Numbered from the stretch's first letter, positions 17,223 to 55,000 are shown. The stretch is DNA of 64,000 bases from an uncultured Clostridia bacterium (GCA_934168305.1 CAKPNF010000001.1:143480-207479); one strand, 5' to 3'. A program made the numbers and translations. The notes: a model not told the origin generated them from the sequence alone.

Positions 17223-17290
17223 TCATTTAAAAATAAATCATCATAGTTTGAATAGCTAATTTTGAAAGGGAGGTACTTGAAGCAGGTACT

Positions 17291-17340
17291 TTATATTTTA
17301 CTCCTATCTCTTATTGCACAAAACTTTGATGCCACAACAA
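17291..17340 (+). repeat. R0: isolated 3'-terminal module of the R repeat family, fused to a truncated rhuM
   Basis: TTATATTTTACTCCTATCTCTTATTGCACAAAACTTTGATGCCACAACAA is near-identical to the last 50 nt of R1 and R2. Confidence 0.85.
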
Positions 17341-17660
17341 ACTTAAAAGATGAAACGGTGTGGCTTACACAAGAGCAAATGTCAAAATTGTTTGGAAAGG
17401 CAAAATCTACTATTAATGAGCATATTAAAAATGTATATAAAGAAGGTGAATTAATAGAAAAAGAAACTATGACTAAATTCGAAAATTCCGAATTTGCTGA
17501 TAAACCAACTAATTATTATAATCTAGATATGATAATTTCTGTTGGGTATCGTGTAAAATCACAAAATGGTATTTTATTTAGAAAATGGGCTACTAGGTAT
17601 TAAAAGATTACATGCTAAAAGGTTATGCAGTAAATCAAAAAAGATTAGAATATTTGGAAA
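17341..17660 (+). pseudogene. 5'-truncated, frameshifted paralog of the RhuM N-terminal domain
   Basis: NLKDETVWLTQEQMSKLFGK...YYNLDMIISVGYRVKSQNGILFRKWAT parallels residues ~20-125 of the 23745 ORF. The frame is lost after RKWAT, and the apparent start of track ORF 17262 lies inside the repeat. Confidence 0.8.
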
Positions 17661-23744: not shown

Positions 23745-24699
23745 ATGGACGAAAAAAGAAATGAAATTATTTTATTTGAAAACCAAGGAGTAAAATTAGA
23801 AGTAAACTTAAAAGATGAAACTGTGTGGCTTACACAAAAACAAATGGCAGAATTATTTGGGAAGGATAGAAGAACAATCACTCGTCATATTCAAAATATT
23901 TATAAAGATGAAGAATTAGTAGAAAGTTCAGTATGCTCATTTTTTGAGCATACTGCTGAAGATGGCAAAAAATATAATGTACAATATTACAATTTAGATA
24001 TGATTATTTCTATTGGATATAGAGTAAATAGCAAACAAGGTATTTTGTTTAGAAAATGGGCAACAAACATACTAAAAGACTACATGATAAAAGGATATGC
24101 TGTAAATCAAAAAAGACTAGAGTACTTAGAAAAAACTATAAAACTTATAGATATTGCAAACCGCATTGATGAAAGACTCGAAGGAAATGATGCAAAAGAA
24201 ATATTAAAAGTAATTGGAGGATATTCAAAAGCATTAGACTTATTAGATGATTATGATCATAGAACTTTAAAGAAAATTGAAGGAAATATAGACGATAGGA
24301 AAATTAAATACCAAGAATGTATAAATATAATTAATAAGTTAAGATTTAATGAAGAAAGTTCGCTTTTTGCAGTTGAAAGAGATAAAGGATTAGAATCAAT
24401 TATTGGTAACATTTATCAAAGCTTTGCACGGACAAGATATTTACAAGAGTATAGAAGAAAAAGGAGCAAATTTCTTATATTTAATAGTAAAAAATCATGT
24501 ATTTGCAGATGGCAATAAAAGAATTGCAGCAACTTTGTTTATATATTTTCTAAATTTTTACGGAATATTATATAAAAATGGTAAACAAGTAATTGATAAT
24601 AATACATTAACGGCTCTTACTTTATTAATTGCTGAATCGAATCCAAAGGAAAAAGAAGTAATTATAGATTTAGTGATGAATTTTTTGAATAATGAATAA
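23745..24699 (+). pseudogene. RhuM-family N-domain fused to a Fic/DOC domain, frame-broken as assembled
   Basis: ORF 23745-24518 carries the RhuM-like region. The overlapping +1 frame from 24430 gives GQDIYKSIEEKGANFLYLIVKNHVFADGNKRIAATLF (Fic motif HxFxDGNKR). The break is at the in-frame CGG at 24429-24431. Confidence 0.7.
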
Positions 24700-35253: not shown

Positions 35254-36705
35254 ATGAAAATTGGAAAAACACACAAATTTTATGTGGATGTATTTGCACG
35301 GCATTCAGGCGTAACTGGATCTTGTTTTTTAAATTCAATTCATTGGCCTGACGGAAATAATTTACGGTTTTTAATAGACGCTGGAACCGCACAAGGAAAT
35401 GACAATAATGGCTTTTTTAATTGCTTTTTTCCTTTTAATACAGATAAGATTAATTTTATAGTTCTTACACATGGTCATCAAGATCATCAAGGAATGTTGC
35501 CAGTTGTAGTAAGACAAGGATTTAAAGGAAAAATTTATACAAGTTATGCAACTAGTAAGTTAATTAATTTGTCTTTATTTGATAACTGCAAAATTACTGA
35601 CCCATATCTTGAAACACCTTTAGCTACTCAAAATGAAGTAGAAAGAACGCTTGATTTAATTATTGGTTGTTCTAATAAAAGAGTCATAAAACCTCATAAA
35701 AATGTCAGTATTGTATTTTACTCAAATGGACATCTTTTGGGTGCTATTGTAACTTTAATTATTATCAGCTGTCCGGGCGAAGATGATATAACTCTTGTTT
35801 ACACAGGAGATTATAAAAATAATAATATTTTCTTTGATGTTGATAAAATTCCTCAGCAAGTAAGAAAATTACAAATATCTTCAATCTTTTGTGAATCAAC
35901 ATATGGTAATGTGGATTCAACGGATAGCCAATTCTCAAAATGTTTAGCATCTAATACGGAAAAAGCTTTAAAAGAAGGAAAGACTGTTATCTACCCTACA
36001 TTTGCTCAGGGTCGATGTCAAGAAACTTTATATTGTATTAAATCTTGGAAAGATGCAAATCTTATTCCAAAAAACATTCCAGTATATCTGGATGGTACAG
36101 CATCTCAAAACTTTACAAGAAGTTATCTATATGATAGCCTTGGTATTAAACATTCAATGAAAAAGTTTTTGCCTGAAAATGTAAAATTTGTTCCACAAGC
36201 ACGAGACAGAATGATTTATAGAAGAAAAATTATGGATAATACATCTCCAAAAATCATTTTATCTTCAGGTGGTATGGCATCATATGGTGCTATAACAAAC
36301 TATATTAAAAACTATTTATCACAAGATGATGCTTTAATACATTTTCTAGGATATTGTTCTCCAAATTCTGATGCATTTAGATTATTAAATACAAAGGATG
36401 GAGAAACGATTAGATACAAGGATTGTGAATTTACCAAGAGATGTCAGATAAAAAAGACTTCAGAACTTTCCTCTCATGCAAAAAGAGATGAATTGTTATG
36501 GTTTATCAATAATTTTCCTAACGTAAAATCTGTAGTAATTAATCATGGAGATGTCTTAATTAAAAAACAGTTTAGAGAATATTTGTTAGAAAATTTAAAT
36601 CTTCCTGAAGAACAAATCAAAATTGCTAATTCTGAAATTGCATTTCGTATAGAATCAAACGGAATTTCAGATGTGTTTAAAACAAATTTTAGTTCAATTC
36701 TTTAA
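35254..36705 (+). CDS. metallo-beta-lactamase / beta-CASP family protein, RNA-type (paralog 1)
   Basis: HGHQDHQG (HxHxDH), ESTYG (motif A), IHFLGY (motif B), SSHA (motif C with His). Confidence 0.8.
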   Translation: MKIGKTHKFYVDVFARHSGVTGSCFLNSIHWPDGNNLRFLIDAGTAQGNDNNGFFNCFFPFNTDKINFIVLTHGHQDHQGMLPVVVRQGFKGKIYTSYATSKLINLSLFDNCKITDPYLETPLATQNEVERTLDLIIGCSNKRVIKPHKNVSIVFYSNGHLLGAIVTLIIISCPGEDDITLVYTGDYKNNNIFFDVDKIPQQVRKLQISSIFCESTYGNVDSTDSQFSKCLASNTEKALKEGKTVIYPTFAQGRCQETLYCIKSWKDANLIPKNIPVYLDGTASQNFTRSYLYDSLGIKHSMKKFLPENVKFVPQARDRMIYRRKIMDNTSPKIILSSGGMASYGAITNYIKNYLSQDDALIHFLGYCSPNSDAFRLLNTKDGETIRYKDCEFTKRCQIKKTSELSSHAKRDELLWFINNFPNVKSVVINHGDVLIKKQFREYLLENLNLPEEQIKIANSEIAFRIESNGISDVFKTNFSSIL

Positions 36706-36759
36706 TAGTCCAACAGAATTGCTTTATAAGTAATTCATAAAAAGAAAGGAGTGCTTTTT

Positions 36760-38193
36760 ATGGCCAAAGGAGTTCGGACAAAATGGTATGCAGATATTAG
36801 AGGATACCATAGTAAAGTAACAGGATCATGTATACGAAACACTATACACTTTTCCGATGGAGAAAAATTCCGTTTTTTAGTTGATTACGGTGTTTATCAA
36901 GGTGAAAGAGAAACTACAGACGAAGTGCTAACTTACAATGATAGTGTTAACCCAGAAAAGATTGGTGCTGTTCTCCTGACGCATACTCACCTTGATCATG
37001 ATGGTGCATTACCAATGTTTGTTCGGAATGGATATTCAAGAAATATTTATATGTCTATTCCAACATCAATATTGTTACCAGTAAGCCTCGAAGATAGTTT
37101 TAATGTTATGAAAAACATTTGTAAAACTAAAAAACAGCCTATGTTATTTAAAGAAGAACATATTTTTCAAACATTAAAACATGTGTGTGCAGTTAATTAT
37201 GAAGAAACTATCTCTATTCACCCTAATATTAATGTAACTTTTTTCAATAACGGCCATCTAACAGGTAGTTCAATAATTTTGGTTCAAATTTTTGATCCAT
37301 GTGGCGAAAGAATCAATCTTCTTTTTACTGGAGATTATAAGAAAGACAATATATTTTTAGATTTAAAGCCTTTGCCAGATTGGGTTTTAAAATTAGACAA
37401 TTTGACAATTATTACTGAATCAACTTATGGAGATACAGACTCTAAAGATGTTGAAAAAGTTTGGGCAGATAATATTAAGGAAGCTTGTAAGAATGACTCT
37501 ATAATTGTTATTCCTGTCTTTGCACAAGGAAGAATGCAAGAAATTATGTATAATGTAAAACTTCTTCAAAAAGAAGGCATTATCCCTGACAATTATATTA
37601 TTGAAATTGCTGGGAAAACAGGAATAAAGTACAATTCCGTTTATATGAGCCGTTTTAGAGACTTGTGCATCAAAGAAGAAATGGCATCATTTATTCCAAA
37701 TAATATTCACATTGTTGATTCAAAGAGTTCCATGTCTATCAGATGTGATAATAAAAAACCTAGAATTATTATAACAACATCTGGAATGGGAAATTTTGGA
37801 CCAGCAAATAGTTATATTCCTGAGGTATTACCAAATCCAAATGCAGTTATACACTTTACAGGATATATGGCAGAAGGCACTTTAGGAAGAAAACTACAGG
37901 AAACTAGACTTGGAGAAAGTGTTACTATTAAAGGCCGTATGGAAATTCCTAGAAGAGCTAAAATTTTTAGCACCAGTGAATTTTCTTCTCATGCAAAAGC
38001 TGATGAACTTATCGATTTTATTAATAAATTTAATCCTAGAGCTGTTTTAGTAAATCATGGTGAACATGAAGTTAAATCTATATTTGCTAAAAGAGTTGCA
38101 GAAAATACTTCTGCAAGAAAAGTTGGTATATTAGGAGAAGGATTTGTATATAGAATAGATCCATATGGGATTGTAAAACCAGTTAAAAAGTAA
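36760..38193 (+). CDS. metallo-beta-lactamase / beta-CASP family protein, RNA-type (paralog 2)
   Basis: HTHLDHDG, ESTYGD, IHFTGY, SSHA. Colinear with paralog 1. The ATG at 36760 follows AAAGGAG. Confidence 0.8.
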   Translation: MAKGVRTKWYADIRGYHSKVTGSCIRNTIHFSDGEKFRFLVDYGVYQGERETTDEVLTYNDSVNPEKIGAVLLTHTHLDHDGALPMFVRNGYSRNIYMSIPTSILLPVSLEDSFNVMKNICKTKKQPMLFKEEHIFQTLKHVCAVNYEETISIHPNINVTFFNNGHLTGSSIILVQIFDPCGERINLLFTGDYKKDNIFLDLKPLPDWVLKLDNLTIITESTYGDTDSKDVEKVWADNIKEACKNDSIIVIPVFAQGRMQEIMYNVKLLQKEGIIPDNYIIEIAGKTGIKYNSVYMSRFRDLCIKEEMASFIPNNIHIVDSKSSMSIRCDNKKPRIIITTSGMGNFGPANSYIPEVLPNPNAVIHFTGYMAEGTLGRKLQETRLGESVTIKGRMEIPRRAKIFSTSEFSSHAKADELIDFINKFNPRAVLVNHGEHEVKSIFAKRVAENTSARKVGILGEGFVYRIDPYGIVKPVKK

Positions 38194-39317: not shown

Positions 39318-40437
39318 TTAAGTTTTTTGACTCGTTCCCAAATCTTCTTTTAAAAAACTTTCCATGAATCCATCTAAATCGCCATCCATAACACCTTGCA
39401 CATTTCCTACTTCATAATTAGTTCTGTGGTCTTTTACCATAGTATATGGGCAAAATACATATGAACGTATCTGGCTTCCCCATGCTATATCTCTTTGTTC
39501 TCCTTTTAAGTCTTCAATTTTTTCTTTATGTTCTTGTTCTTTTAAATCAAATAGTTTGGATTTAAGCATTTTCATAGCAGTTTCTCTATTTTGAATTTGT
39601 GAACGTTCTGATTGACATGCTACAACAGTGTTTGTTGGAATATGTGTAATTCTTACTGCTGAAGATGTTTTATTTATGTGTTGTCCTCCAGCTCCTGATG
39701 CTCTGTATGTGTCAATTCTTAAATCGTCTGGATTTATATTTATTTCTATATCTTCTGTTATTTCCGGTAATACTTCTACTGATGCAAATGATGTATGTCT
39801 TCTTCCTCCACTGTCAAATGGCGAAATCCTTACTAATCTATGAACACCTTTTTCAGATTTCATGTATCCATAAGCATTTTGACCAATTATTTCAAATGTT
39901 ACACTTTTTATCCCTGCTTCTTCTCCTTCCAGATAATCAAGCTCTTTTACTTCATACTCGTTTTTTGTAGCCCATCTTGTGTACATTCTGTATAGCATCT
40001 CTGCCCAATCCTGTGATTCTGTTCCTCCTGCTCCTGGATGAATTGTAACTATTGCGTTATTTGCATCATATTTGCCAGATAATAATGTTTCTAGTTCTAA
40101 TTTTTCAATATTCTTTTGCTCTTTTTTAGTATTTTTCACTATATCTTTTGCTATTTCTTCATCAAATTCCAATTGAACTAACTCTGATAATTCTAATAAA
40201 TTGTTTATTTCTTTTTCTAATTTTTTATATTTTACATATTTACTTTTTATTCTTTTTATTTCTGATAATACTTTTGTTGTATTTTCTGTATCTTCCCAAA
40301 ATTCTTGTTTTGTTGTTTTTTCTTCTAATTCATTCAATTTTTTTTCTAAACTAGGTATGTCAAAGAGACTCACCCAAGCTTTTTAATTTTTCTTTTAATT
40401 CGTTAAGTATCTTGATTGTTTCTTCAAGTTCTAACAT
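39318..40437 (-). CDS. prfB: peptide chain release factor 2, with programmed +1 frameshift
   Basis: A 25-codon leader ORF (MLELEETIKILNELKEKLKSLGESL*) ends in CTT TGA C. The +1 frame continues as the 351-aa RF2 body with SPF and GGQ (SGAGGQHINK) motifs. Confidence 0.9.
40359..40365 (-). promoter_or_regulatory. RF2 autoregulatory +1 frameshift site CUU UGA C
   Basis: The rc of 40359-40365 reads CTTTGAC, preceded by a purine-rich GGGTGAG SD-like element. Confidence 0.85.
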
Positions 40438-40484
40438 AAAATCACCCCTTATAATAGAAAAAGTAAAGGGAGATAAATCTCCCC

Positions 40485-41365: not shown

Positions 41366-41636
41366 CGAATATTATTAGTATTTATTGTATTTATCATATT
41401 ATTTGTATTCGTTGGTGTTACTAGACAATGCACATTTGGTATATTGTATTTTTAGTATATATAATATTTATATACCGATGTCAAATCGCTGTCATTGACA
41501 TCCTACTAATATATCAAATAATTGGCTCTTTCTTAAACAATTTATATATTTAACTTTTATTTACTTACTTCTAATATTATAATAAAAAGGAAGAAAAAAA
41601 TCAACGTTTTAAAGAGGATTTTCTGTAATTTGTATA

Positions 41637-42113
41637 TCAATATTTGTAATTTGAAATTTTATCTATAATGTCAGAATGAATTACTTTTTCAAAAATATCA
41701 TTTGCTTCTTTCCTAGATTCATCAGAACTAGATATATAATAATTTTCTGTTGTTTCAATATTTTTATGACCTAAAATATCAGCAACATCTCTTATTTCTA
41801 CTCCATTTTTTAATATTCTTGTTGCATAACTTCCTCTTAGATCATAAAATCTGCAATTTTTAATTCCTAGTTTTGGAGTTAATTTATCAATTGCTCTTTT
41901 TAATTTTTCATAATCTCTTTTAAGGTTTTCAAATGGGTTATTATCATTTTTATCTTGAATTTTGGACCATTCTACATAATTTATTTTTTCTTCTCGCTTT
42001 TTAATAACTTCAAGATGTTTCTCATAATCAAGTTTTTTATGTAATAATGCTATTTGCATATAATTTAAGAATCTAGCAAATACTACATCATCCTCTAACT
42101 CAATATCAAACAT
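41637..42113 (-). pseudogene. tyrosine integrase C-terminal fragment
   Basis: YDLRGSYATRILKNGVEIRDVADILGHKNIETTENYY covers only the HxxR...Y catalytic end. The N-terminal half is unrelated sequence. Confidence 0.7.
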
Positions 42114-42838
42114 AAATAAAACCTCCTACATACTCAAAATTTGCAAATTTTTGAGTATGAGGAGGTCCCCTACATCTTTGTGCTAAAAAGCAAACAAGGA
42201 CAAACTTACCCCTAAAAATAAGCTTGTCCTCATCTACATATTTAATTGATTTTTGCACATAAATAATAACAATTCTCACAACCACACTTCCTAATGCATA
42301 GATGTAAAAATCAGCATAAACTCACCTAAATCTACGCCAAATTTTCTTTCAAAAATTTATCCTTTGGTTCGTTTATGCTGTATAGTGTTTTAAATGGAAG
42401 TGTCTGTATATAAGAAAAATACACCCAATTACCCCATAATAAAGTTATTGTGTGCATTTGTAATTCTATTCTTATATGCAATAAAAAAATCCATCTTATC
42501 CCTCCTAATCTTTACAAAATCTCTTTTGTCTATTGATGGATTTATCTTTTGCTTTACCAGCGACATCTTATCATATTTTTTATGCGAAATCTGTCAAATT
42601 TTGCGAAAAAGTAAAAAAAGTTTACAAAAAATGTATTTTTCGGTTCCATACAACAATTTTCGCTCTTTTGTATAATATTTTGTAACAAATAAGAATAATT
42701 TTAATGGTATTTTATGATAGAAAATGATATTTTTAGAAAAAAGCAAAAAATATAGTATCTCTGCTATAAAAATATCTAAATATTCAAAGGCTTCTCGATT
42801 AAAAAGTGAAAAAAATAAAGCACCTTTATATCGGCACT

Positions 42839-44393
42839 TTATCTACTCACATCCTCGATTGAAGTATCTCTGTTAACTAAATGTAATTGTTCTAATTGTC
42901 TTTCGGTAATATTTATAACTTTACCACAACATGGATTAAAGTCTTTATTTCCATATACTAGCCAAATAACATTTTCCCTTTTTAAATCTTCCTTTGGCAT
43001 TGTACCAGGGCAAGGATAACCATCAGTAAATACTATTTTGTTGATTTCTCTCTTTTTAGTAAAACTTCTTACTGCTAAATCCCAATCCTCAGTCCATGCA
43101 GAATCTCCTCTAGCTCCTCTAGGTATTGTAAAATTGTCTATATCTCTTGCACTTTTAATATCTACAAGTCCCCAAAATTTTTCGTTAAAGCATCCAACTT
43201 TTAATTTTGATTGCTTTAATATTGGCTTTATTTGTCTTAAAAATGCTTTTACTAAATCTAAATCTACTGATCCAGAAACATCTATCATAATTTCTGTTTC
43301 AGCCTCATCTTCTATATCATTTTCTTCTAGTCTATAGGCATAATTATTTTCTGCAATAGAGCGTCTTTGGCTCCAAATTGTTTCTGTTTTTTCTACTTCC
43401 CTTCGTAGCAAAACTTTCCAATCAATAGTTTCTTTACTATCACCTATGCTACCAAGTTCTATTGTTCCTTCCTGTGTTCCTCTTATGTCGTGTTCTGTTT
43501 TTTCACGCCTTGCTTTAAATCTTTTTCTTTTTTCTTGTCTATTATCTTCAAATTCACTTCTCTCATCAAAGTCCATTTGTGGTTGTTCATCAATAGCTTT
43601 CTGTTTTTCTGCTCCTTCACTTTTTTGTTTTTGTCCTTGCTGTTGTTGATTTCTAAATGCTTCTTCCCATAAACTATGGTCATCTCCTTGGTGTGATGGT
43701 TGTTGTTTTCCTTCTCCTTCTCCTTCTTTTTCGCCTTTGCTTTCTCCATCACCTTGATTTCCATCCTGTTCTTGTTCCCCTTCTTGATTACCTTTTTGTT
43801 TATTTTGCTCGCCTACATCATTTTGACTACCATCTTTATTTTCACCATCTTGGCTTTGTCCACCACTATCACCTTGATTTTGTTCTTGATTTCCTTGTCC
43901 GTTTTTGTTCTTGTTCTTTTTGTTGCTTTTCTTTTTCTTGTAATAAAATTTGATAAAATTCTTCTGCCGAATAATTTAATGCTTCTGGCATATTTACATA
44001 TCCTTCTTTAATTGTAAATCCATCTCTCTCTAAATTAGCATTTATAATAGCATCAGTTGCAATATTCCACAATTCTGGATCTCTTTTTTTACCTTCTTTA
44101 TCTGTTAATCTATACATGTGCATAAATTTAATGTGCATTATTTCGTGTGCTATTGTAAACAATCTATCGCTTTCACTTAAATTTCCAAAATAATTAGGAT
44201 CAACATATATATTTTTCCCATCTGTTGCTGCGGTATGAAAAGGTAAATCATCTTTAAACTCAATATTTGCAACTGCAATTTCGCTACCAAATCTAGGATA
44301 TTTTGCCAACATTTTTCTTTTTACATCATAAATCATATCTACATTAGCATCCATCCGTTGCACTTCCCTTCTACCTAAAATGCAACCACGCAA
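42839..44393 (-). pseudogene. DUF2201-type protein: N-terminal HExxH metallopeptidase domain, Q/E/G/N-rich linker, C-terminal vWA domain. Frame-broken as assembled.
   Basis: HEIMH in ORF 43869-44393 and the MIDAS motif DVSGS in ORF 42839-43576. The vWA frame is open without stops from 43900 down to 43576 and joins the first ORF at the in-frame CGG at 43901-43899. Confidence 0.7.
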
Positions 44394-44743
44394 AGATTAT
44401 GAAGTTCTGATGATATATTTTTTAATCTATCTTTATTTTCAACGGTTAAAACTATAACAACATCCTCTGGTAATAAAATTCCATTAAATTCTCTATCTTT
44501 CACTATTTGATAAAATTTATCTTGTTTGTCTAGTTCTAATTTATCAATTTCTTCTATTACAAGAAATTCAAATTTCTCATCTGCTTTAGATATTTTTTCT
44601 TTAAAGATTTTAAGTAATTCATTATCTTTACATTTTGAATTGATTAAAATCTTTGAATTAAGTTTTTCTATATCTTCGTTTTGAATTATAGCACAAGTAG
44701 CTTTACATCCTTTTTGCAATTCAATTAAATCTATATTCATCAT
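44375..44743 (-). CDS. hypothetical protein (122 aa)
   Basis: ORF tightly packed between the 162-aa ORF and the DUF2201 gene. No motif. Confidence 0.5.
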   Translation of the reverse strand: MMNIDLIELQKGCKATCAIIQNEDIEKLNSKILINSKCKDNELLKIFKEKISKADEKFEFLVIEEIDKLELDKQDKFYQIVKDREFNGILLPEDVVIVLTVENKDRLKNISSELHNLCVVAF

Positions 44744-44748
44744 TATTT

Positions 44749-45237
44749 TTAGCCCCTTTCCTTTTTATTTATAAAGAAACTTAATATTTTATTTAAAAAC
44801 TTTTTAAATAAACCTTCTTCTTTATATTCAATTATAGAGGTTTCTTTTTCAGTTACATTTTCAGTAATTGTATTTGTTTTTGCTTCTTTTTTATTCTTAA
44901 ATATGTCATCTATATCATAATTGTCCATTTTTTCCGTTTTCTCTGTCTTTGAATTATTAGCATGTATTATATTTTTATAATTGTTTCTATCTTTATCATT
45001 GCACCACCAAGTAATATAAATAAATCCTAAAAGTTCTCTAGTCTGCTTTCTTAAATTAAGTCCACTAATTGGCCCATTATGATTAAAGTTTGCTTTGTAA
45101 TTCTTATTTGCGATTTCTGTTAGAAATTTTATAAAACTTTGTGGTATTTTTCTTACATCTTCTTGATTTGTATAATTTAATATATCTAAAACTTCAACTG
45201 CTGCCTCGCTATACTCAACTTCTCTCATTATCTTCAC
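44749..45237 (-). CDS. hypothetical protein (162 aa)
   Basis: Overlaps the end of the DGR target by 23 nt, consistent with translational coupling. No motif. Confidence 0.5.
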   Translation of the reverse strand: MKIMREVEYSEAAVEVLDILNYTNQEDVRKIPQSFIKFLTEIANKNYKANFNHNGPISGLNLRKQTRELLGFIYITWWCNDKDRNNYKNIIHANNSKTEKTEKMDNYDIDDIFKNKKEAKTNTITENVTEKETSIIEYKEEGLFKKFLNKILSFFINKKERG

Positions 45238-47470
45238 CTCTCATTTCTTTAGTATCTCTGCCTAAATAACTGCTATACATTTGTCCTATGCCTGTATATG
45301 CAGTTGCACCATCTTGTGCAAATTGTTCGGCTTCCATTCTAGTATGTAAAGATAATGCCTGCTCTTGCAATTCTGCAATTCTTTCCATCTTTCTTTCATC
45401 ATTTCCAGCCCAATATATATCGTAAATTGATAAATATTCTGGATCACAATGTTTTCTTATAAAATCTCTACAAGCTTCAACTTGTTTTTCATCCGCCGTT
45501 ATTAAAGCAGTCATATAAGCAAATCTCTCACTTATATCTCTAGGTAAATCTGCTTGTGTATATCCTTTTCCCATACCTTGTGTTACTTCTTCTGGTGTTA
45601 ATGTAGGTAAATTATAAAAATCAAAGAATTCACTAGCCCATTCCATACGAAGTTTTGATTCTATTGACCTTTGAATTATATCCTCAACATCTTTTCCTTC
45701 ATATCTTCCTGCTTCTAAATTTCTTTCAAAATTATATAATGTATTTGAAATTGAAGTCCATCCACGAGGATCATTTGTTCTTCCTTTGCATCCATTAGCG
45801 TCTAAATGTTGTTCTCCAACATCTGGCTCCTCATAAAAATATCCAATATCTTGTATAGCTTCACTTTTACCAGAATTGTTGTATTTTGATAGCATATATC
45901 CTATTACTGCTGGATGAATTTTATGTGGTATTGCATATTCTGTAATCCATTCTCCAACTTTAGGCTCCATATCTAAAATATGGTCGAATCTCTTTTCTAG
46001 TGGCTCTGCCAAATCTTCTGCTACACTTGAATATTTCTTTTGATTTCCTGTTGCTACTACAACCACATTATCTGGTAGTTTAAGTCCTTTGCCTATCTCT
46101 ACCATTCTATTTAATACCAAAGTATATACTAAACTTTGAACTGCTGGTTTAACATTCAAAAGCTCATCTAGCATAATTACAACTTTTTTATCACTCTCTT
46201 TTGACCTTTCATAAACTGTATCTGCTATATCAAATATACTTTGTATATTTTCTTCCACCATTTTTCTTTCTTCTTCCGTTGCTTCTTGCATAATAGCAGT
46301 CTTTGCAAAATCTGGTGGTATGCTTTGTCCTGTTTGCAAATTAACTGATCCCACTACTTTTTCTGGGAACATATTATTTGTTAATTTCATATATATTAAA
46401 TCTGGATATAATGATTTAATTCTTTCCGTTTTTCCTATTCCAGATGGACCTCTTAATAATACTGATTCTCCTGCTTCAATCCAATTCTGTATTATTTCTG
46501 TATCGGTCATTCTTACTCTACTAGCTTGTTTAGTCTTATCTGGATTTAATTTTTGTAATCTTGATTTTCTAGGCTGAATTTCTGGTATTTCTTCACTTTG
46601 TTCTCCTAGTTCTATTGTTCCTCTTGACTGTTCTAATTCTTTAGATAAATATTTATCCATAAATGTTTTAATGTCTGTTCTGTCAAAATCTTTTGTATGA
46701 TAATCTCTTGTATGTTTAAATTGAACTCCAGCAAAAATCAACTTATCTGTAAGCATCATCTTTGCCCTTTCATCAACTAACCATTTTACCGGAGCAACTT
46801 CTACCCATACAGAATCGCCATCTCTATAACTCTCTCCATTTGAAAGTTTAAATTCACCACCATCAAAGCAAGAATTTGCTTCTACTCTCACATATCTCTT
46901 TCCATCTAATTGAAATTCCTCGTGTTGTTTTGGCGAAAACACTTCATCGTATTCATCATATTTTCTTGAATCTGTTGTATATTTCTTTCCAGTTCTTGAT
47001 AAACTTCTTCTTTCAAAAGCTCTTTCTAGTTTTTCTTGCATATCTCTTGATACAGCTTTTTGTGGATAGTATCCATACTCTACCTCTAAAACACCATCTC
47101 TTGCTCTTTTTGGTGCCCCACTCACTCCGTTCGTGGGGATGCTAGAGATTGATGAGAACGGTAAAGCTGGGCGAGCCCCACCATGGCGTGAGTCAACATT
47201 GTCGAGGAAACCAACACCATCGACATCGACCACGAGCGCGTCATTATCTCCATAATCTGATTTAGTCCAATAATATCCAGTTCTTCCCTCTAATGAGTCA
47301 TCACCATCTATATGACAATAATCTCTATCTCTATCAACCCATCCTCCTAGTAATATAGAAAAATCTGTTATTACTGCTTCTTTTCCTCTTTTTTGTAATA
47401 TATCTAATGTTTCACTTTCAAAACACTGCTCTTGTGTCAAAAAAGTTAGATTACTCATAATAAAATTCAC
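45215..47470 (-). CDS. DGR target protein: N-terminal variable ligand-binding-like domain fused to a MoxR/AAA_5-like ATPase
   Basis: The VR encodes residues ~76-101 (…GYYWTKSDYGDNDALVVDVDGVGFLDNVDSRHGGARPALPF). Walker A LLRGPSGIGKT, Walker B VVIMLDELLN. 751 aa. Confidence 0.8.
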   Translation of the reverse strand: MNFIMSNLTFLTQEQCFESETLDILQKRGKEAVITDFSILLGGWVDRDRDYCHIDGDDSLEGRTGYYWTKSDYGDNDALVVDVDGVGFLDNVDSRHGGARPALPFSSISSIPTNGVSGAPKRARDGVLEVEYGYYPQKAVSRDMQEKLERAFERRSLSRTGKKYTTDSRKYDEYDEVFSPKQHEEFQLDGKRYVRVEANSCFDGGEFKLSNGESYRDGDSVWVEVAPVKWLVDERAKMMLTDKLIFAGVQFKHTRDYHTKDFDRTDIKTFMDKYLSKELEQSRGTIELGEQSEEIPEIQPRKSRLQKLNPDKTKQASRVRMTDTEIIQNWIEAGESVLLRGPSGIGKTERIKSLYPDLIYMKLTNNMFPEKVVGSVNLQTGQSIPPDFAKTAIMQEATEEERKMVEENIQSIFDIADTVYERSKESDKKVVIMLDELLNVKPAVQSLVYTLVLNRMVEIGKGLKLPDNVVVVATGNQKKYSSVAEDLAEPLEKRFDHILDMEPKVGEWITEYAIPHKIHPAVIGYMLSKYNNSGKSEAIQDIGYFYEEPDVGEQHLDANGCKGRTNDPRGWTSISNTLYNFERNLEAGRYEGKDVEDIIQRSIESKLRMEWASEFFDFYNLPTLTPEEVTQGMGKGYTQADLPRDISERFAYMTALITADEKQVEACRDFIRKHCDPEYLSIYDIYWAGNDERKMERIAELQEQALSLHTRMEAEQFAQDGATAYTGIGQMYSSYLGRDTKEMRGEDNERS
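47116..47138 (-). other. GC hairpin 28 nt downstream of the VR (DGR-type cruciform/hairpin element)
   Basis: CCCCAC (47116-47121) and GTGGGG (47133-47138) with an 11-nt loop, lying inside the coding sequence. Confidence 0.6.
47167..47244 (-). repeat. DGR variable region (VR)
   Basis: 78 nt aligned to the TR without gaps, with 18 mismatches, 16 of them at TR adenines. About 59% GC. Confidence 0.9.
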
Positions 47471-47572
47471 TCCCTAAATTACAATATTTATCTTCAATAA
47501 ATATCAAAAATACTTTTCTAAAAATATTTTATCATAACAACATTTTTTTGACAATGTATTTGCAAATATTTT

Positions 47573-48597
47573 TTAACTTTTTTTAGGGAATGAATCTTCT
47601 TTTAATTTTTTATTTTCTTTTGTATCTTTTATATGATTATAAAAAGCATTTTTTCTAATGTAAACATAGTTATCATCTACTATATCTTTATCTCGTAATT
47701 TTTTTAAAGTCTTTAAATGCCTTTTCAACCTCTGTTTAGATGAAGCTCTTAATTTTCTTGTTATACTGCCATTCTTGTTCAGGATATGTCTATATCCCAA
47801 AAAATCTATACCATTTCTTACTACACCTATTTGAGTTTTCTGATTAAGTGATAATTTCAAGTCTGTCTTACACTTGTTTTCTATTTCCTTAAGGCTGTTT
47901 TGTAAATATCCTTTATCTCTATGAATTAAGATCATATCATCCATATATCGAATGTACCCTTTTACTCTCAATACTTCCTTAATAAATCTATCAATAACAT
48001 TTAAGTATAATAGTGCAAACCATTGGCTAGATTGATTTCCTAGTGGCAATCCTATATTAGCTTCATTAGGTTGTTCTTTTATAAGTTTTTCAATCATCCA
48101 CATTTCATCTTCTGAAAAGTCGATTTTCTTTAATAAATTTAATAAAATTTTGTGATCTATGCTAGGGAAATATTTTGTAATATCACATTTTAAATAATAA
48201 ATATTGTTATTGTTTTCTTTTCTATATTCATCCTTTAAAAACTTTTCCAATCTTTTAATAGCAAAAGTTGTTCCTTTTTCTTTTCTACAGGCTGCGTTAT
48301 CATATATGAGTTTTCTTTCAATCTTATCTCTTAATACTACATCACAAAAACATTTAATAACTACCCTGTCTTTAAAGGGTAATGCCTCTATTACTCGCTT
48401 TTTAGGCTCATATATAAAAAAATTCTGTATTCCCCTAGTTTGTATTTTTTTGAAATAATATCATTCATAAGATTTGTTATATTTACTGAAAGATTAGCTT
48501 CAAATCTTATTACTTCTCCCTTATGTTGTTTAGATCTTCTGCATCCTTTATATGCTTCATATAAATTTTCAAATGTAAAAATTTCTTCAATTTTCAT
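47573..48597 (-). CDS. DGR reverse transcriptase (two frames joined at a U UUU UUA heptamer)
   Basis: N-terminal FENLYEAYKGCRRSKQHK, IGLPLGNQSSQWFALLYLN (DGR-type motif 4) and YIRYMDDMILI (YMDD). The frames join at 48415-48421. Confidence 0.85.
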
Positions 48598-48819
48598 ATC
48601 TTTTTTCCCCCTAAAAAAAGAACGCCTCTCAAAACTTGCAAAAAATAGTTAATCTATTCGTTGCTCGTGTAAGCGTTCATTTATTCTTCCACCGCACTAT
48701 ATATAGCGGTTAGAAAAGAGAAAAATTCCTTCACTTTAAAATACTGGTATATTTTACCTAAAATATACTTCTCTGATTTGTTTTTTAATCCACTTTTATA
48801 GGATTTATCAAAAGTGAAT

Positions 48820-48897
48820 CTGGGCGAGCCCCACCATTGCGTTTGTTAACATTGTTGTTGTTCCTATTACCATTTTCATTGACCACGCGCGCGTCAT
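48820..48897 (-). repeat. DGR template repeat (TR)
   Basis: Lies between avd and the RT. The coding-sense strand is rich in AAY (…AAT GAA AAT GGT AAT AGG AAC AAC AAC AAT GTT AAC AAA CGC AAT…). The 3' 18 nt, ATGGTGGGGCTCGCCCAG, are identical to the VR. Confidence 0.9.
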
Positions 48898-48940
48898 AGA
48901 GTAAGGGGCAAAAAAAGAAAACCCTAAATAAATTTTTCCC

Positions 48941-49549
48941 TTAATTAAAAACCTTTCGGCTTAAAATCCTAACTTCTTTTTCTCCATCTATCATCATCAC
49001 TTTTTTCCATGCTACTGTTAAATTTATTGCCTCTGCTAGTTGGATGGAAATCTGTTTATATTGTTTATTTAAAATACCCCCTGAACTTTCTGCAACCATA
49101 GATACATATCCCAGTAGTTTTAACTTTACTACTGCCTCTTTTTGTAATTCTTCTCTTTTGGTCTTTTTTTCTGGAGCATCCATTCTAATAAAATTTGCTT
49201 CCAATAAGCACTCCAGAGTATCTAGGCAATAATTTTGCATCCTATTAACAAATACTCCTCTAAATTTTTTTGGTGATTTTTCTGTAACTGCTATTGTGTA
49301 TGCTGCCAGCTTTTTAACTACAGTAATTACCATTAAATCGTTTGCATTAAATGGTATCTTATTTACTTGTTCTAGCTCTTTATCATCCTCAATTTTTTCT
49401 ATTTCGGATTTTTTATTAAACTTTTTATTATTGGCAGTAGCAATAGACTGCTTTACTGCCAATTTATCTTCAATATTATTTTCTACTCCATTAGCATCTT
49501 CTAATTTTTTAGGTATTTTTAAATTACTATCTCGACTTACTTGTAACAT
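48941..49549 (-). CDS. avd: Avd-like accessory variability determinant (four-helix-bundle type)
   Basis: The C-terminal ~130 aa (SPKKFRGVFVNRMQNYCLDTLECLLEANFI...NKQYKQISIQLAEAINLTVAWKK) fits the Avd / 23S-IVS four-helix-bundle pattern. An internal start at 49333 would give a canonical ~130-aa protein. Confidence 0.65.
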   Translation of the reverse strand: MLQVSRDSNLKIPKKLEDANGVENNIEDKLAVKQSIATANNKKFNKKSEIEKIEDDKELEQVNKIPFNANDLMVITVVKKLAAYTIAVTEKSPKKFRGVFVNRMQNYCLDTLECLLEANFIRMDAPEKKTKREELQKEAVVKLKLLGYVSMVAESSGGILNKQYKQISIQLAEAINLTVAWKKVMMIDGEKEVRILSRKVFN

Positions 49550-49616: not shown

Positions 49617-49997
49617 TTAGAAGTTTTCACTTATTCTTTGTACTTTATTTAAAACTTCATTATATTCTTCCCTACTTACATTTGTTCCATCTAATGACTT
49701 TTGAAACTTCTTTTCTTCTTCTGATAAATCCATTTCTGGATCATCAATATCGCTAATTGTTTTATCTACACATTTTAATATTTCAAGCATTCTTTTTATA
49801 ATTTCTCTTACATCAATGTTACTAAATTTAAAGCATTCTTTTGCTTTATTAAATAATATTTTATATTCAAGTTTTGTTAGATCTACTATATTATTTTTTT
49901 CTAATTGTTTATACAACTGATGAACTATGTATAAATCCTCTAAATCTTCCTTTTCTTCATCAGTTAATCTATTATATTTTTCAAATATATTTATCAT
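49617..49997 (-). CDS. hypothetical protein (126 aa, acidic)
   Basis: ORF overlapping the stop of the upstream gene by 4 nt. Confidence 0.5.
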   Translation of the reverse strand: MINIFEKYNRLTDEEKEDLEDLYIVHQLYKQLEKNNIVDLTKLEYKILFNKAKECFKFSNIDVREIIKRMLEILKCVDKTISDIDDPEMDLSEEEKKFQKSLDGTNVSREEYNEVLNKVQRISENF

Positions 49998-50893
49998 ATA
50001 TCGTATCCTCCTATATCTTCAATTTCATCTTTATTAGGTACAAAAAAAGAAGGACTTTTCTTGTCCCTCGTTAATTCATTTGTAACACTTTTATAATAAT
50101 AATTTATAAAGCTCTCAATTGGATTATTCAAATCTTTGTATTCATCTTCTTTGAGTTTACAATCATTATATATTTTCAATAGTTTATCTCTACTAACTTT
50201 GTGAATTAGGTATTGTAATTTATCTCTAACCATTAAGGCTATTGCATAATCTATAACTTTTATTCTTTCAAGATTATCTCCAGTTATATATTGTAAAGAA
50301 TCTTTTGTGTATAACATTTCGTATTTCTTTAGTAGATTATATATTTCATTAAAATCCACTTTTGAAAATTCTGCTGGAAAATCCTCTTTATTATTTATAA
50401 TATAATTAAAAAATCTATCTATCTTATTAATACTTATAATATTATACTGTCCTTTTTGGGACATACCCTCTGTCCCATTTATCGAATAGGGGTATGTCCT
50501 ATTTATCGTATAGGGTGTATCATTTGGATAAATTCTTCTTTGGATAATTTCGCCTTTTTCATTTTTTATCATATCTAAACAAACAAAACCGCATTCTCTT
50601 AAATGAGAAACCCATTTTGATATTGTATGTGGTTGTGCATCTAATAAATTGCTTAAATAAGCATTTGAAGCGAAACAATAACCTTCTTTATTGGATAATA
50701 TAGTTATTATTGCATATAACAATTTTTCATTTGCTTTCAAATCTTTATTAAATAAAATCGTAGCTGGAATAACTGCATAATATCCTATTTTGTTTTCTTC
50801 ATTCAAATTATTTATTCCCCCTCTCTTACCTTCAACTTTTTTAGGGGTAAATAAATTGCTAGATATTATTTCAATAACAACTTTTAAGAACAC
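49994..50893 (-). CDS. wHTH replication-initiator/DnaD-like protein of mobile elements
   Basis: YYAVIPATILFNKDLKANEKLLYAIITILSNKEGYCFASNAYLSNLL...TISKWVSHLRECGFV resembles the HTH_36-type N-domain of phage/ICE replication organisers. Confidence 0.55.
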   Translation of the reverse strand: MFLKVVIEIISSNLFTPKKVEGKRGGINNLNEENKIGYYAVIPATILFNKDLKANEKLLYAIITILSNKEGYCFASNAYLSNLLDAQPHTISKWVSHLRECGFVCLDMIKNEKGEIIQRRIYPNDTPYTINRTYPYSINGTEGMSQKGQYNIISINKIDRFFNYIINNKEDFPAEFSKVDFNEIYNLLKKYEMLYTKDSLQYITGDNLERIKVIDYAIALMVRDKLQYLIHKVSRDKLLKIYNDCKLKEDEYKDLNNPIESFINYYYKSVTNELTRDKKSPSFFVPNKDEIEDIGGYDI

Positions 50894-52017
50894 AGTTCCA
50901 ACTCATTTGCAAAATCTTCAAATTTATCAACTGTATCCGTTTTCATTTTTTTAGTAACTCTTACATATATTTCATAAGTAGTTCTAATATTACTATGTCC
51001 TGATCTTTTGGCAATAGCTTTTATATCTGCTCCTGCTTCGATTAATTTTGTAGCATGTGTTTCTCTAAAATCATGGAATCTACAATTAATTCCTAATTCA
51101 TAATGAATAACTTTAAATGGATATTTACAAGTATCTGTACCTTCAAATACTCCATTATGTTTTACAAACACAAGATTAACTTCTTTTAATGCTTTAACTA
51201 GAGTATCTCCTATTTCAATTGTTCTATAAATTCCAGGTGTTTTACAAGTACCAAAATACCATACTGTTGTTGCTTTACCACTAATGTGCCTACCATGAGT
51301 TGCTCCGTTTTGATTTTTCTTTAATACATTTTTATTTACTGTTAATGTTTTATTTTCTAAATCAATATCATCCCATGTTAATGCAAAAACCTCTGCTGCT
51401 CTTAAGCCAGTACAATATGCTGTTAAAATAGCATAATACATAGCATGATTATTTTTAAATCCATCTAACATCATATTTATTTCTTCATTAGTAAATATAT
51501 GTGCTGGATTCTTTTCAGGAATATCATATTTAGGTAATGAAGCCTTTATAGCTGGATTTACTTTTATAAAACCCACTTTATCTGTTGCATATCCAAACGA
51601 TGTTTTTAATACTTTTAATATATTTTTTAAAAAGTTTTTTGAATATCCTTTTTCAAGATAAATATTATTTATAAATTCGTGTAATGTTGATGTAGTAATT
51701 TGTGTTAATCTATAAAAACCTAATCTTGGTCGAATATGATTTTTTATAATATTTGAATATGCTTGTATAGTATGATATTTAAGATTAACATGACAATAGT
51801 TTTCTAACCAATAATCAAGATAGTCACTATAAGACATTGTAGCTGGTGTAAACGAATGTCCTGTTTGCGTATATTCATTATAAGCCTTTATACCTGCTTC
51901 CTATGCTTCCTTTTTTGTTTTAAAACCTGACTTAACTTGTTGCTTTCTCTTTCCATTTACTGGTACAATTTCAAAATAATATTGATAACTCTTTCCTCTT
52001 TTTCTAACATTGACTAT
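50884..52017 (-). pseudogene. tyrosine integrase with an in-frame TAG and no canonical start
   Basis: The catalytic region is intact (HDFRETHATKLIEAGADIKAIAKRSGHSNIRTTYEIYVRV). The arm-binding N-terminus IVNVRKRGKSYQYYFEIVPVNGKRKQQVKSGFKTKKEA is in frame but separated by TAG at 51903-51901. The only codon correctly spaced after GGAGG is ATA (52017-52015). Confidence 0.7.
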
Positions 52018-52246
52018 AGTTATTACCTCCAAAAATATTAATTTGGTAAATAAAAAAGAGCTAAAACATATATAAAATGTTTAACTCTTTAACTATAATC
52101 ATTTTTGATATCGGAGCTACAATTAAGTTATATCAACGTATTCCGAGTTTTGACATCCAAAATTTTATTTTTCGATGTCAAATGGATGTCAAAATGCCTT
52201 TTTTACTATATTTAATATATTAGTTTGTGGCTTGTAACCCTTGATA

Positions 52247-55000
52247 TTACTGATTTCTTCCACAACAGTTTTTGTATTTCTTACCACTTCCACATGGACA
52301 TGGATCATTTCTACCAACTTTTGGCCCTTCGTTTACAACTGTTTGACTATATTCAGGAGTATTAATTTTCTTTCCACCATCAACACTATTGATGGCTTCT
52401 AAAGCTGCTCCTGTAATCTTAGCAGTTTCTTGTCTTTGTGCATTTCCGTTTTGTTTTCTGATATTCATAAGAATCTTAACGACATCTAATTTAATGTTTG
52501 CAATCATTTCATCAAACATATCCATACCTTCCATTCTGTATTTTACAACAGGATCTTGTTGTCCATAAGCTCTTAATCCAATACCATTTTTTAATTCATC
52601 CATACTATCAATATGATTCATCCATTTTTCATCAACAACCTTAAGCATTACAACTCTTTCAAGTTCTCTCATTTTCTCAGAAGTAATTTCATCTTCTTTA
52701 GCTTGATATTTTTCAGTTGCTTGTTTTTCTAATTCCTCTATAATTGCATTTGAATCGTCTTTATGTTCTTTAATATAGTCTAACATATCTAACCCATATA
52801 CGTTTGTTATTTCTGTATTTAAAGACTCTACGTTTACAGATTTTCCATCTTCTCCCTCAATAAACATTGAAACTGTTTCTTCTGCAATAGAATTTATCAT
52901 ATTTAATATGTTATTATGAATATCTTCTCCATCTAAAACTTCTCTTCTTTGTTTATATATGATTTCTCTTTGTGCATTCATAACATCATCATATTTTAAT
53001 ACATTTTTACGAATACTAAAGTTTCTACCTTCAACTTTCTTTTGAGCGTTTTCAACAGCTTTTGAAATCATTCTAGAAGCTATTGGCATGTTTTCGTCTG
53101 CTCCTAAAGTATTGTAAACTCTTGTTATAGCATCTCCACCAAAGATTTTCATTAAATCATCATCTAATCCTATATAGAATCTTGATTCTCCGACATCACC
53201 TTGACGTCCAGAACGACCTCTTAATTGGTTATCGATTCTTCTTGATTCATGTCTTTCTGTACCAATTATTTTTAATCCACCGGCATCAATAACTTTTTGT
53301 TTTTCTTCTTTTATTTGTTCATCGTATTTTGCAACTAATTTATTAAATTCTTCTCTTGCTCTTAATATATCTTGATCATTTGTTTCATAATATGTGTTTG
53401 ATTCTTCTATTAAGTTTGCTGGTACTTTATTTTTTCTCATTTCTTCTTTTGCTAGATATTCACTATTTCCGCCTAACATAATATCAGTACCACGTCCTGC
53501 CATGTTTGTTGCTATTGTAACTGCACCAAATTTACCAGCTTGTGCAACTATCATAGCTTCTTTTTCATGTGATTTTGCGTTTAATACTTCATGTGGTATA
53601 CGTGCTTCATTTAATAATTTACTCAATTTTTCTGATTTTTCAATTGATACTGTACCAATTAGAACTGGTTGTCCTTTTTCATGGCTTTCTTTTACGCTTT
53701 CAACAACTGCTCTGAATTTTGCTTTTTCATTTTTGTAAATTACATCATTTTCGTCTTTTCTTATCATAGGTTTGTTTGTTGGTATTTCTACGACATCTAA
53801 GTTGTAAATTTCTTCAAATTCTGATTCTTCTGTCATAGCTGTACCTGTCATACCTGATAATTTATCATACATTCTAAAGTAATTTTGGAATGTTATTGTT
53901 GCTAATGTTTTTGATTCATCTGCTATTTTTACTTTTTCTTTTGCTTCAATTGCTTGATGTAGTCCATTATTATATCTTCTTCCATACATAATACGTCCTG
54001 TAAATTCATCAACAATTAAAACTTCTCCATCTTTTACGATGTAGTCTATATCTTTTTTCATTACCCCATGTGCTCTTAATGCTTGGTTTACATGGTGTAC
54101 TAATGTAGAGTTCTCTAAATCATTGAAGTTTTCTAATCCGAAAAATTCTTCAGCTTTTTTTATACCTTTTTGTGTTAATGATGCTGATTTTGCTTTTAAG
54201 TCTACTATATAATCGTATTTTTCATTATCTTCTGCTTGCTCAAAGTCTTTTACATCTTCTTCAACTATAACTTTTGCTTCTAGTTTTCTTACGAAATCAT
54301 TTGCTTTTTTGTATAAATCTGATGATTCATTTGCTCTACCTGAAATGATAAGTGGTGTTCTTGCTTCATCTATTAAAATACTATCGATTTCATCGACTAT
54401 TGCATAGTGTAATCCTCTTTGAACTAATTGATTTTTATAAATTACCATGTTATCTCTTAAGTAATCAAATCCAAATTCATTATTTGTACCATATGTAATA
54501 TCTGCTGCATATGCTTTTTGTTTTGCTTGTGGATCCATTCCTGCAATTACCAGTCCTACTGAAAGTCCTAAGAATTTATATAATTTTCCCATCCATTCAC
54601 TATCTCTTTTTGCCAAGTAGTCATTTACTGTAATTACGTGAACTCCTTTTCCTTCTAATGCATTTAAGTATACTGGTAATGTTGCAACTAATGTTTTTCC
54701 TTCACCAGTTTTCATTTCTGCAATTCTTCCTTGGTGTAATATAATTCCACCTATTAATTGTACATCAAAATGTCTCATTCCTAAGGCTCTTTTTGATGCT
54801 TCTCTAACAACAGCAAATGCTTCTGGTAATATATCGTCTAAAGTTTTTCCTTCTGCTAATTGTTTTTTAAAGTATTCTGTTTTTCCTTTTAATTCATGGT
54901 CTGTTAATTTTTCCATTTCTGGTTCTAAACTGTTGATTTTTTCTACTATTGGCATTACCCTTTTTACTTCTTTTTCACTGTATGTTTTGAATAGTTTCAT
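52247..55000 (-). CDS. secA: preprotein translocase ATPase SecA
   Basis: 917 aa with DEAD-like motor motifs ([28 protein letters not shown]) and the C-terminal SEC-C zinc motif [14 protein letters not shown]. Confidence 0.97.

Follow-up and report, generated by a model that had tools for sequence, protein, structure and literature searches.

Background

Most targets of diversity-generating retroelements (DGRs) in cellular genomes are surface or secreted proteins, and the intracellular targets linked to NTPases have so far come mainly from multicellular cyanobacteria and gammaproteobacteria. The present study concerns a DGR on the minus strand of a stretch of 64,000 nucleotides from an uncultured Clostridia bacterium (GCA_934168305.1 CAKPNF010000001.1:143480-207479), in which avd, a template repeat (TR), a reverse transcriptase (RT) gene and a target gene with a variable region (VR) follow one another. 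In the following, the whole stretch of 64 kb is called the window, "this copy" is the DGR situated in it, and L-numbers denote the loci of relatives. We read the locus as a DGR of gut Firmicutes that is carried by an island of around 11 kb and rewrites a DUF6273-like domain fused to an ATPase, with a diversifying machinery that is most likely dead in this genome.

The order avd-TR-RT-target with an N-terminal VR is known from DGRs of gut phages with DUF6273 targets (PMC10743442; bioRxiv 10.1101/2024.10.15.618418). DUF6273 is a C-type-lectin-like DGR target domain that bears the VR at its C-terminal end, and it can form the N-terminus of "tentaclins" encoded downstream of avd-TR-RT (PMC10743442; PMC11792537; bioRxiv 10.1101/2024.10.15.618418). 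Such elements are those of the nd4/nd12 tentaclins (PMC10743442), of Faecalibacterium prophages (PMC11792537) and of Toutatisvirus (bioRxiv 10.1101/2024.10.15.618418). The locus described here shares with them the gene order, the position of the VR at the C-terminal end of an N-terminal DUF6273/C-type-lectin-like domain, and the closest RT; target genes that outlast the loss of their DGR are reported there, too. There is, however, a difference: the targets of the phage elements are virion proteins that combine DUF6273 with Ig/Fn3 domains, whereas here the domain is fused to a presumably cytoplasmic MoxR-like AAA+ ATPase on an island that is not a phage. Concerning the characters of tentaclins, domain scans detected no Ig/Fn3 domain in the target, which possesses the AAA+ ATPase instead, and there is no phage context.

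That DGRs can be linked to MoxR/vWA systems is likewise known. Kaur et al. (2020, PMC7159879) and Dore et al. (2024, PMC10907252) describe such ternary systems, with a proposed role in conflicts, for cyanobacteria and gammaproteobacteria. These systems resemble the present locus in a DGR-diversified, ligand-binding domain of lectin fold, presumably cytoplasmic, that goes together with a MoxR-type ATPase, a vWA domain (VWA-like in the present case) and a peptidase. In these systems of multicellular bacteria, the VR is situated in a C-terminal CLec/FGS domain that is usually fused to vWA, and MoxR and VMAP are separate. The present VR domain, in contrast, is DUF6273-like and occupies the N-terminus of the ATPase. 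The ATPase has a DUF2201 metallopeptidase-VWA protein as its partner, no VMAP domain was detected with libraries that contain no VMAP model, and the cassette of genes is found on mobile elements, in gut Clostridia whose genomes are small. The likeness to the vWA-MoxR (VMAP) ternary systems is one of analogy only, and the locus is not counted among them.

With the DGR of phage BPP-1 (Avd, TR, bRT, Mtd), the locus has in common the homology of the RT, the presence of Avd, the adenine-specific transfer from TR to VR, the GC-rich 3' end shared by both repeats, a hairpin (here a candidate) downstream of the VR, and a spacer RNA with a predicted structure. Differences exist in that the target gene of BPP-1 lies upstream and encodes a tail-fibre CLec protein that bears the VR at its C-terminus, whereas the hairpin found here is situated 28 nt from the end shared by TR and VR and has a loop of 11 nt, Avd has an N-terminal extension of 70 aa, and both RT and avd are frameshifted. 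The machinery of the DGR is conventional; the target and the evolutionary pattern are less ordinary. No co-mention of diversity-generating retroelements with DUF2201 or AAA_5 was found in the literature, and we found no prior description of a MoxR-like ATPase that itself bears a VR domain as its N-terminal part, with a DUF2201 partner and on mobile elements of Clostridia, a combination that we regard as new. The locus extends the intracellular, NTPase-linked DGR targets to gut Clostridia with small genomes, with a different architecture.

Template repeat and variable region

The TR (78 nt, positions 48820..48897 on the minus strand) is rich in AAY triplets. Read as 48897..48820, it aligns over all 78 nt without gaps to the VR at 47244..47167 (minus strand), which comprises codons 76-101, near the N-terminus, of an open reading frame (ORF) of 751 codons. 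Among the 18 mismatches, 16 concern adenines of the TR, such that 16 of its 27 adenines are substituted, and two are G->T changes; the hypergeometric probability of at least 16 out of 18 mismatches falling on adenines is 8e-8. A repeat search ranks this pair (84 nt) first among the direct repeats of the region. The 3' 18 nt, ATGGTGGGGCTCGCCCAG, are identical in both repeats and form the constant end of the VR (47167-47184), similar to an initiation of mutagenic homing (IMH) site; this 18-mer occurs exactly twice in the window, with a chance expectation of 0. The VR has a GC content of 59%, compared to 26.7% for the window.

At a distance of 28 nt 3' of the VR, an inverted repeat CCCCAC-N11-GTGGGG (47116..47138, minus strand) constitutes a candidate target-recognition hairpin. 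It is part of the minimum free energy fold, with an unexceptional energy (z = -0.25). The conservation of third codon positions amounts to 0.93 in the IMH-like end and, over 29 distinct loci including relatives at around 40% protein identity, to 0.94 in the hairpin, compared to 0.75-0.84 in the flanks. This conservation of synonymous sites persists even in those relatives in which the ATPase part is a different AAA+ domain. As third positions in both elements are more conserved than those of the flanks, a constraint at the DNA level is indicated, as expected of retrohoming signals.

These observations agree with an earlier sequence-only reading of the window, whose claims of a gapless alignment with 18 of 78 differences (16 at adenines, two G->T), an identical 3' end of 18 nt, a GC-rich VR and a hairpin 28 nt downstream (47138-47116) were all reproduced. 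The order avd, TR, RT, target on the minus strand, too, was recovered as proposed there, with all four ORFs and the motifs LPLGNQSSQ and YMDD in their places.

Reverse transcriptase, Avd and spacer RNA

The RT gene (47573..48597, minus strand; 341 codons) is interrupted by a -1 frameshift. Joined across the frameshift, its product has its best match in the Protein Data Bank (PDB) to the Bordetella phage bRT (8ub7; E = 3.3e-36, 128 bits), whereas other classes follow at a large distance (group II intron RT: E = 2e-7, 34 bits; retron-type RT: 1e-5, 28 bits). The sequence IGLPLGNQSSQ aligns to IGIPIGSLTSQ of bRT (SQ-type motif 4), YMDD is present, and RVT_1 is matched at E = 7.8e-17. Among phages, the closest RTs belong to DGRs of gut phages (nd12, 42.8% identical; also Faecalibacterium phages). 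Judged by these sequence comparisons, the RT is of the DGR type, as had been concluded earlier from its motifs.

The avd gene (48941..49549, minus strand) encodes 202 aa as read here, and its product matches the PHROG family phrog_3206, "Avd protein of DGR" (E = 8.4e-16). Matches to NCBIfam DivGenRetAVD (E = 4.5e-6) and Pfam bAvd (E = 0.0017) extend over nearly the full length of the models, both below the curated cut-offs, and a profile search against PDB sequences yielded chance-level matches only (best E = 0.3). The PHROG and NCBIfam matches support the earlier assignment of an Avd-like ORF upstream of the TR.

The spacer between TR and RT (48598..48819, minus strand; 222 nt) is presumed to be the 3' part of the DGR RNA. 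Over six lineages, the TR is conserved at 90-99% and the spacer shows a mean column identity of 90%, whereas the RT proteins of the same lineages are only around 80% identical. The consensus fold (RNAalifold) contains 101 pairs, four of them with compensatory changes (e.g., ACCGC/GCGGT to ATCGC/GCGAT), with a conserved hairpin CACTTTT...AAAAGTG directly after the TR, further helices, and a predicted long-range duplex between the 3' end of avd and the spacer. An Rfam scan of the TR/spacer region gave no meaningful match. Conservation and fold are consistent with a structured DGR RNA, whose function we infer from the DGR RNA of BPP-1.

Following the established mechanism of DGRs, the avd-TR-spacer RNA would be reverse-transcribed by a complex of RT and Avd, with misincorporation opposite adenines of the template. 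The cDNA would then replace the VR, guided by the shared GC-rich 3' end and probably also by the downstream hairpin, and around 12 surface codons of the small DUF6273-like, C-type-lectin-like domain would be rewritten.

Activity and recurrent decay among relatives

Of more than 1,200 homologues of the target, the best 120 (82-97% identity) were aligned for entropy. An entropy of around 3 bits is reached only at codons 82-84, 86-91, 93, 94 and 96 of the VR, which coincide exactly with the codons whose TR counterpart contains an A; G85, V92 and R95, for which the TR codons contain none, are invariant in all 120 homologues. In relatives with a cognate TR, all mismatches between TR and VR are situated at adenines (11/11 in L009, 11/11 in L034, 12/12 in L043).

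A sister element with an intact avd, an RT of 341 aa and two tandem ATPase targets is represented by two metagenomic samples, L044 and L045. The two samples show no difference across their first 5,222 nt, a part that spans avd, TR and RT, whereas their VRs differ at 16 and 17 positions, 31 of these 33 at TR adenines (p = 1e-16). Further pairs of proteins are identical outside the VR and differ in 9-10 VR residues. The DGR family is active, as follows from the differences between the VRs of sister samples, nearly all of which are located at TR adenines. The population check that the sequence-only reading had proposed, i.e., whether variation is limited to positions templated by TR adenines, was thus positive in sister elements, at the level of the family and not of this strain.

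Two further observations concern these loci. A cluster of 12 of the 46 total differences between L044 and L045 lies within 580 nt of the ATPase gene (6287-6869), which may represent a recombination tract; since the proteins are identical outside the VR, all 12 are synonymous. Tandem VR-domain genes exist in several relatives, with three in L017 (1306, 3673, 6013) and two each in L019, L024, L025, L026, L033 and L044. As one TR matches both VRs in L019 and in L044, a single DGR there diversifies two ATPase paralogues.

Besides active copies, the family contains many in which the DGR has decayed. A full RT is kept in only 4 of around 17 informative species genomes, and the majority of relatives no longer possess the DGR at all. 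The RT of L007-9 is interrupted by a nonsense codon (CAA to TAA), that of L046 has lost 240 nt by an in-frame deletion, and only RT remnants are left in L016 and L022. The P0021 clade is without DGR and has insertion sequences in its place, and its VRs show no difference over many samples. When all 29 VRs are taken together, mismatches occur at a rate of 0.52 per TR-A site, compared to 0.14 per non-A site, and orphan VRs gain non-A changes. The family therefore constitutes a well-sampled series of active copies, freshly broken copies and DGR-less copies with frozen VRs, in which the freshly broken stage comprises three independent RT lesions among near-identical elements, that of the window included. 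Such a series could serve to address the lifetime of DGRs, and the question whether a mutator is lost more readily after its VR has become fixed.

It is conceivable, but we put it forward only tentatively and consider it rather doubtful, that the four-gene cassettes of these loci represent an undescribed recognition system of gut Clostridia, intracellular and borne by mobile elements. A DGR would there reprogram the specificity of a lectin-like sensor that is directly joined to a MoxR-like ATPase, with a metallopeptidase-VWA protein as partner. The DGR would be a dispensable "specificity writer", repeatedly lost or inactivated after the fixation of a useful VR. If true, this would account for the large number of frozen VRs without a DGR, and for RT lesions that arose independently.

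Lesions of this copy and alternative explanations

The coding strand of the RT gene contains a run of seven T at 48416-48422, where L007, L043 and L046 have eight (RIFFIYEP). The reading frame is thereby split into an ORF of 68 aa (48597-48391) and a second one at 48250-47573, whereas the RT of L043, which is around 94% identical, is intact. Similarly, avd has six A at 49001-49006, compared to seven in all five relatives compared (L007, L043, L044, L019, L027), and this -1 frameshift replaces the conserved C-terminal WKKSDDERWRKRS (SDDERWRKRS) by an unrelated tail of 22 residues. The tyrosine integrase of the island (50884-52032, minus strand) is interrupted by an in-frame TAG at 51901-51903. 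Finally, the fourth gene of the target cassette (42839..44354, minus strand), which encodes a DUF2201_N metallopeptidase (HEIMH) with a DUF2201 VWA-like part, is split into two ORFs by an additional A at about 43897-43901, within a low-complexity linker. As this last frameshift is shared by the independent sample L046, it represents a real mutation. The target gene itself is still intact.

The sequence-only reading had described a complete DGR. This description does not hold, given the -1 frameshifts in RT and avd, the nonsense codon in the integrase and the two non-A mismatches of the VR; the RT indeed lies at 48597 to 47573, as claimed, in an interrupted reading frame. This copy is a degenerate member of the DGRs rather than a non-member, and it probably fits better to the "fossil DGR" that had been mentioned there as an alternative. 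The annotation should accordingly read degenerate, not complete. The frameshifts of RT and avd in homopolymers, together with the stop in the integrase, suggest that the VR of this genome would be a frozen record of past adenine mutagenesis. Concerning the two non-A mismatches, the TRs of four other lineages have an A at one of these sites (AGA) where the TR of this copy has a G, which suggests that the VR predates a point mutation of the TR.

Several points weigh against this reading. Single-base changes in homopolymers are the commonest type of sequencing error, and all three frameshifts reported here are of this kind; it is the possibility of such an error at the two deletions that keeps our confidence in an inactivated DGR at the level of the probable. 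Transcriptional or ribosomal slippage on the T7 run could yield some full-length RT. Compared with L046, to which it is 98.3% identical, this copy shows 18 VR differences, 14 of them at TR adenines, against a divergence of around 1% elsewhere. In view of so many differences at A sites, mutagenesis must have run until very recently, and the inactivation, if real, is young. As to the cassette, the DUF2201 VWA-like match (E = 2.5e-4, 21.6 bits) lies below the Pfam cut-off of 26.4, PADLOC recognised no defence system in the cassette, and its role as a sensor or conflict system is proposed from domain content and analogy only.

A rival reading is that of a DGR that is intact and active in this strain, with frameshifts that are errors of sequencing or assembly or are bypassed by slippage. 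In its favour, both lesions of RT and avd are -1 changes in A/T runs, TR, spacer RNA, IMH-like end and target are intact and near-identical to those of active sisters, and the VR differs from that of L046 mainly at A-templated sites. However, 48 comparable A/T homopolymers, each of 7 nt or longer, lie within intact long housekeeping ORFs of the window outside the island, which argues that the assembly is not generally indel-prone; the nonsense codon of the integrase is no homopolymer error, the frameshift common to L046 shows that real indels accumulate here, and sister lineages have acquired independent RT lesions outside homopolymers. The two non-A mismatches, of which none is found in L009, L034 and L043, point in the same direction. 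The lesions are thus unlikely to be assembly noise, and we consider an active DGR in this strain an unlikely, although not a negligible, explanation.

Clearly less probable still is that the RT in cis is dead and TR and VR are serviced in trans by an intact RT and Avd encoded elsewhere in the genome. Remote DGR targets, with a TR "elsewhere in the genome", are known (Kaur et al. 2020, PMC7159879), many relatives retain adenine-patterned VRs without an adjacent DGR, and TR and flanking RNA are intact here; yet no second RT or Avd was found in the 64 kb window, and DGR-less clades have frozen VRs (P0021) and more non-A drift. That the locus is no DGR at all, but a decayed duplication beside an RT of a retron, a group II intron or a defence system, has hardly any probability left. 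It is true that the best NCBIfam match of the RT is a group II RT/maturase (E = 3.8e-24), far below the cut-off and in a library without a DGR RT model, and that PADLOC returns generic RT and DRT models, which carry no cut-offs. Against this stand the 128 bits to bRT compared to 34 and 28 for the group II and retron types, the SQ-type motif 4, Avd, the adenine bias between TR and VR, the variation of VRs between samples at TR adenines, and the lack of intron RNA domains and of any Rfam match. An originally functional and recently inactivated DGR therefore remains the explanation that we prefer.

Target protein and its VR domain

The target gene (45215..47458, minus strand) most likely starts with the ATG at 47458 (MSNLTF...), as in homologues, and would then encode 747 aa. 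The long ORF spans 47470-45215 (751 codons), with the VR in frame at residues 77-101; the ORF of 751 aa carrying the VR had been predicted before, and of this prediction only the start would have to be revised. The protein begins with the DUF6273-like VR domain (aa ~1-125), followed by a beta-rich middle part, a MoxR-like AAA+ domain (aa 337-495) and a helical C-terminal region; no signal peptide and no membrane segment were found in it. The AAA+ part matches AAA_5 (E = 3.5e-6, above the cut-off) and the PHROG ATPase family phrog_1297 (E = 4.5e-33), and phage homologues of this part are annotated as MoxR ATPase. A profile of the target family found no match among PDB sequences.

The N-terminal module of around 125 residues is widespread (501 representative clusters) and occurs in fusion with ankyrin, leucine-rich repeat, pentapeptide, DUF4116 or AAA+ regions. 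Pfam DUF6273 is matched by 6 of 93 members of the module family (best E = 7.8e-6), which is weak but consistent. An AlphaFold2 model of the N-terminal 131 aa, based on a diverse alignment, reached a pLDDT of 87, and its best structural matches are DUF6273 phage proteins (probability 1.0, E 5e-3 to 1e-2, TM 0.44-0.57). A Foldseek search of the VR domain against the PDB gave nothing significant (best E = 2.1); the assignment to the C-type-lectin-like fold is therefore drawn from the similarity to DUF6273 and from published models. A full-length model of the 751 aa, built with 120 close homologues, was poor (pLDDT 47) and was not used.

In L030, L031 and L033, the N-terminal ~290 residues, i.e., the VR domain and the beta-rich region, are around 75-80% identical to those of this target. 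As they are fused there to a different AAA+ domain, the whole proteins being only around 40% identical, domain shuffling of the sensor module is indicated.

The ATPase cassette

The target gene is the first of a cassette of four genes on the minus strand. A promoter-like site (TTGTCA-17-TAAAAT, extended TG; 47526..47554) stands at the head of the cassette, and a terminator-like hairpin (42813..42844) closes it. Cassettes that lack a DGR are homologous to the window between these two sites, with sharp boundaries at the promoter-like site and at the hairpin. The second gene (44749..45237; 162 aa, 159-162 aa among cassettes) always follows the target gene, and the third (44375..44743; 122 aa) is likewise assigned by synteny. 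Neither has a confident family match in Pfam, NCBIfam or PADLOC. The protein of 122 aa contains a Walker B-like sequence, FLVIEEIDKL, without database support, and may be a degenerate AAA+ fragment. The fourth gene, whose metallopeptidase part matches DUF2201_N at E = 3.1e-22, is undivided in relatives and encodes 456-512 aa there; its VWA half retains an ATG of its own at 43576 in the window. Most likely, the four genes would together constitute an intracellular sensor of ligands that can be diversified and is coupled to an ATPase/VWA-protease module, the whole being carried by mobile elements.

DGR-less cassettes of 4.8 kb (47585-42809 in the window) are found in unrelated chromosomal contexts (L010-L013 vs L014 vs L001), with flavodoxin genes as neighbours, with spoIVA on one side and a UDP-glucose pyrophosphorylase gene on the other, or with insertion sequence elements nearby. 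Neither terminal repeats nor a transposase were identified that would make the 4.8 kb cassette a mobile unit, and L016 and L022, which retain remnants of the RT, suggest that the DGR was deleted rather than that the cassette moves by itself.

Island and genomic context

The window is chromosomal, as shown by genes for SecA, valyl-tRNA synthetase and peptide chain release factor 2 (RF2), the latter with a programmed frameshift. The island of around 11 kb (about 41.5-52.2 kb) is inserted between prfB and secA. Its backbone comprises, in addition to the interrupted integrase, a gene similar to HTH_36 replication initiators (49994-50893, minus strand), and no phage structural genes are present in it. 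When 9.2 kb of the region were compared by megablast with records of phages and plasmids, no match was obtained, and no relatives of the target were found among the viral contigs of IMG/VR. Hosts of the relatives are uncultured gut Clostridia from humans, rabbits, mice and sheep, in which the loci are accompanied by relaxase/NikA, serine recombinase or insertion sequence genes, or in which the bare cassette lies among housekeeping genes.

At the far end of the island, a C-terminal fragment of 158 aa of a second tyrosine integrase is situated (41637-42113, minus strand). A search for att-like repeats at the island ends recovered only an unconvincing direct repeat of 11 nt, CGATGTCAAAT, at 41476 and 52173; the motifs GATGTCAA/TTGACATC occur near both ends (41460-41520 and 52140-52190) and may be att or arm sites. 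The flanking prfB gene (39318-40440, minus strand) exhibits the classic programmed +1 frameshift site CTT TGA C near 40365, and secA extends over 52247-55000. Outside the island, a RhuM/Fic-type gene (HxFxDGNKR; 23745-24699, plus strand) is apparently split by a frameshift into ORFs of 257 and 98 aa, and a truncated paralogue of its N-terminal part is located at 17262-17603 (plus strand); both are accessory genes that resemble pseudogenes. Two tandem beta-CASP/RMMBL metallo-beta-lactamase genes, RNase J-like paralogues, are situated at 35254-38193 (plus strand).

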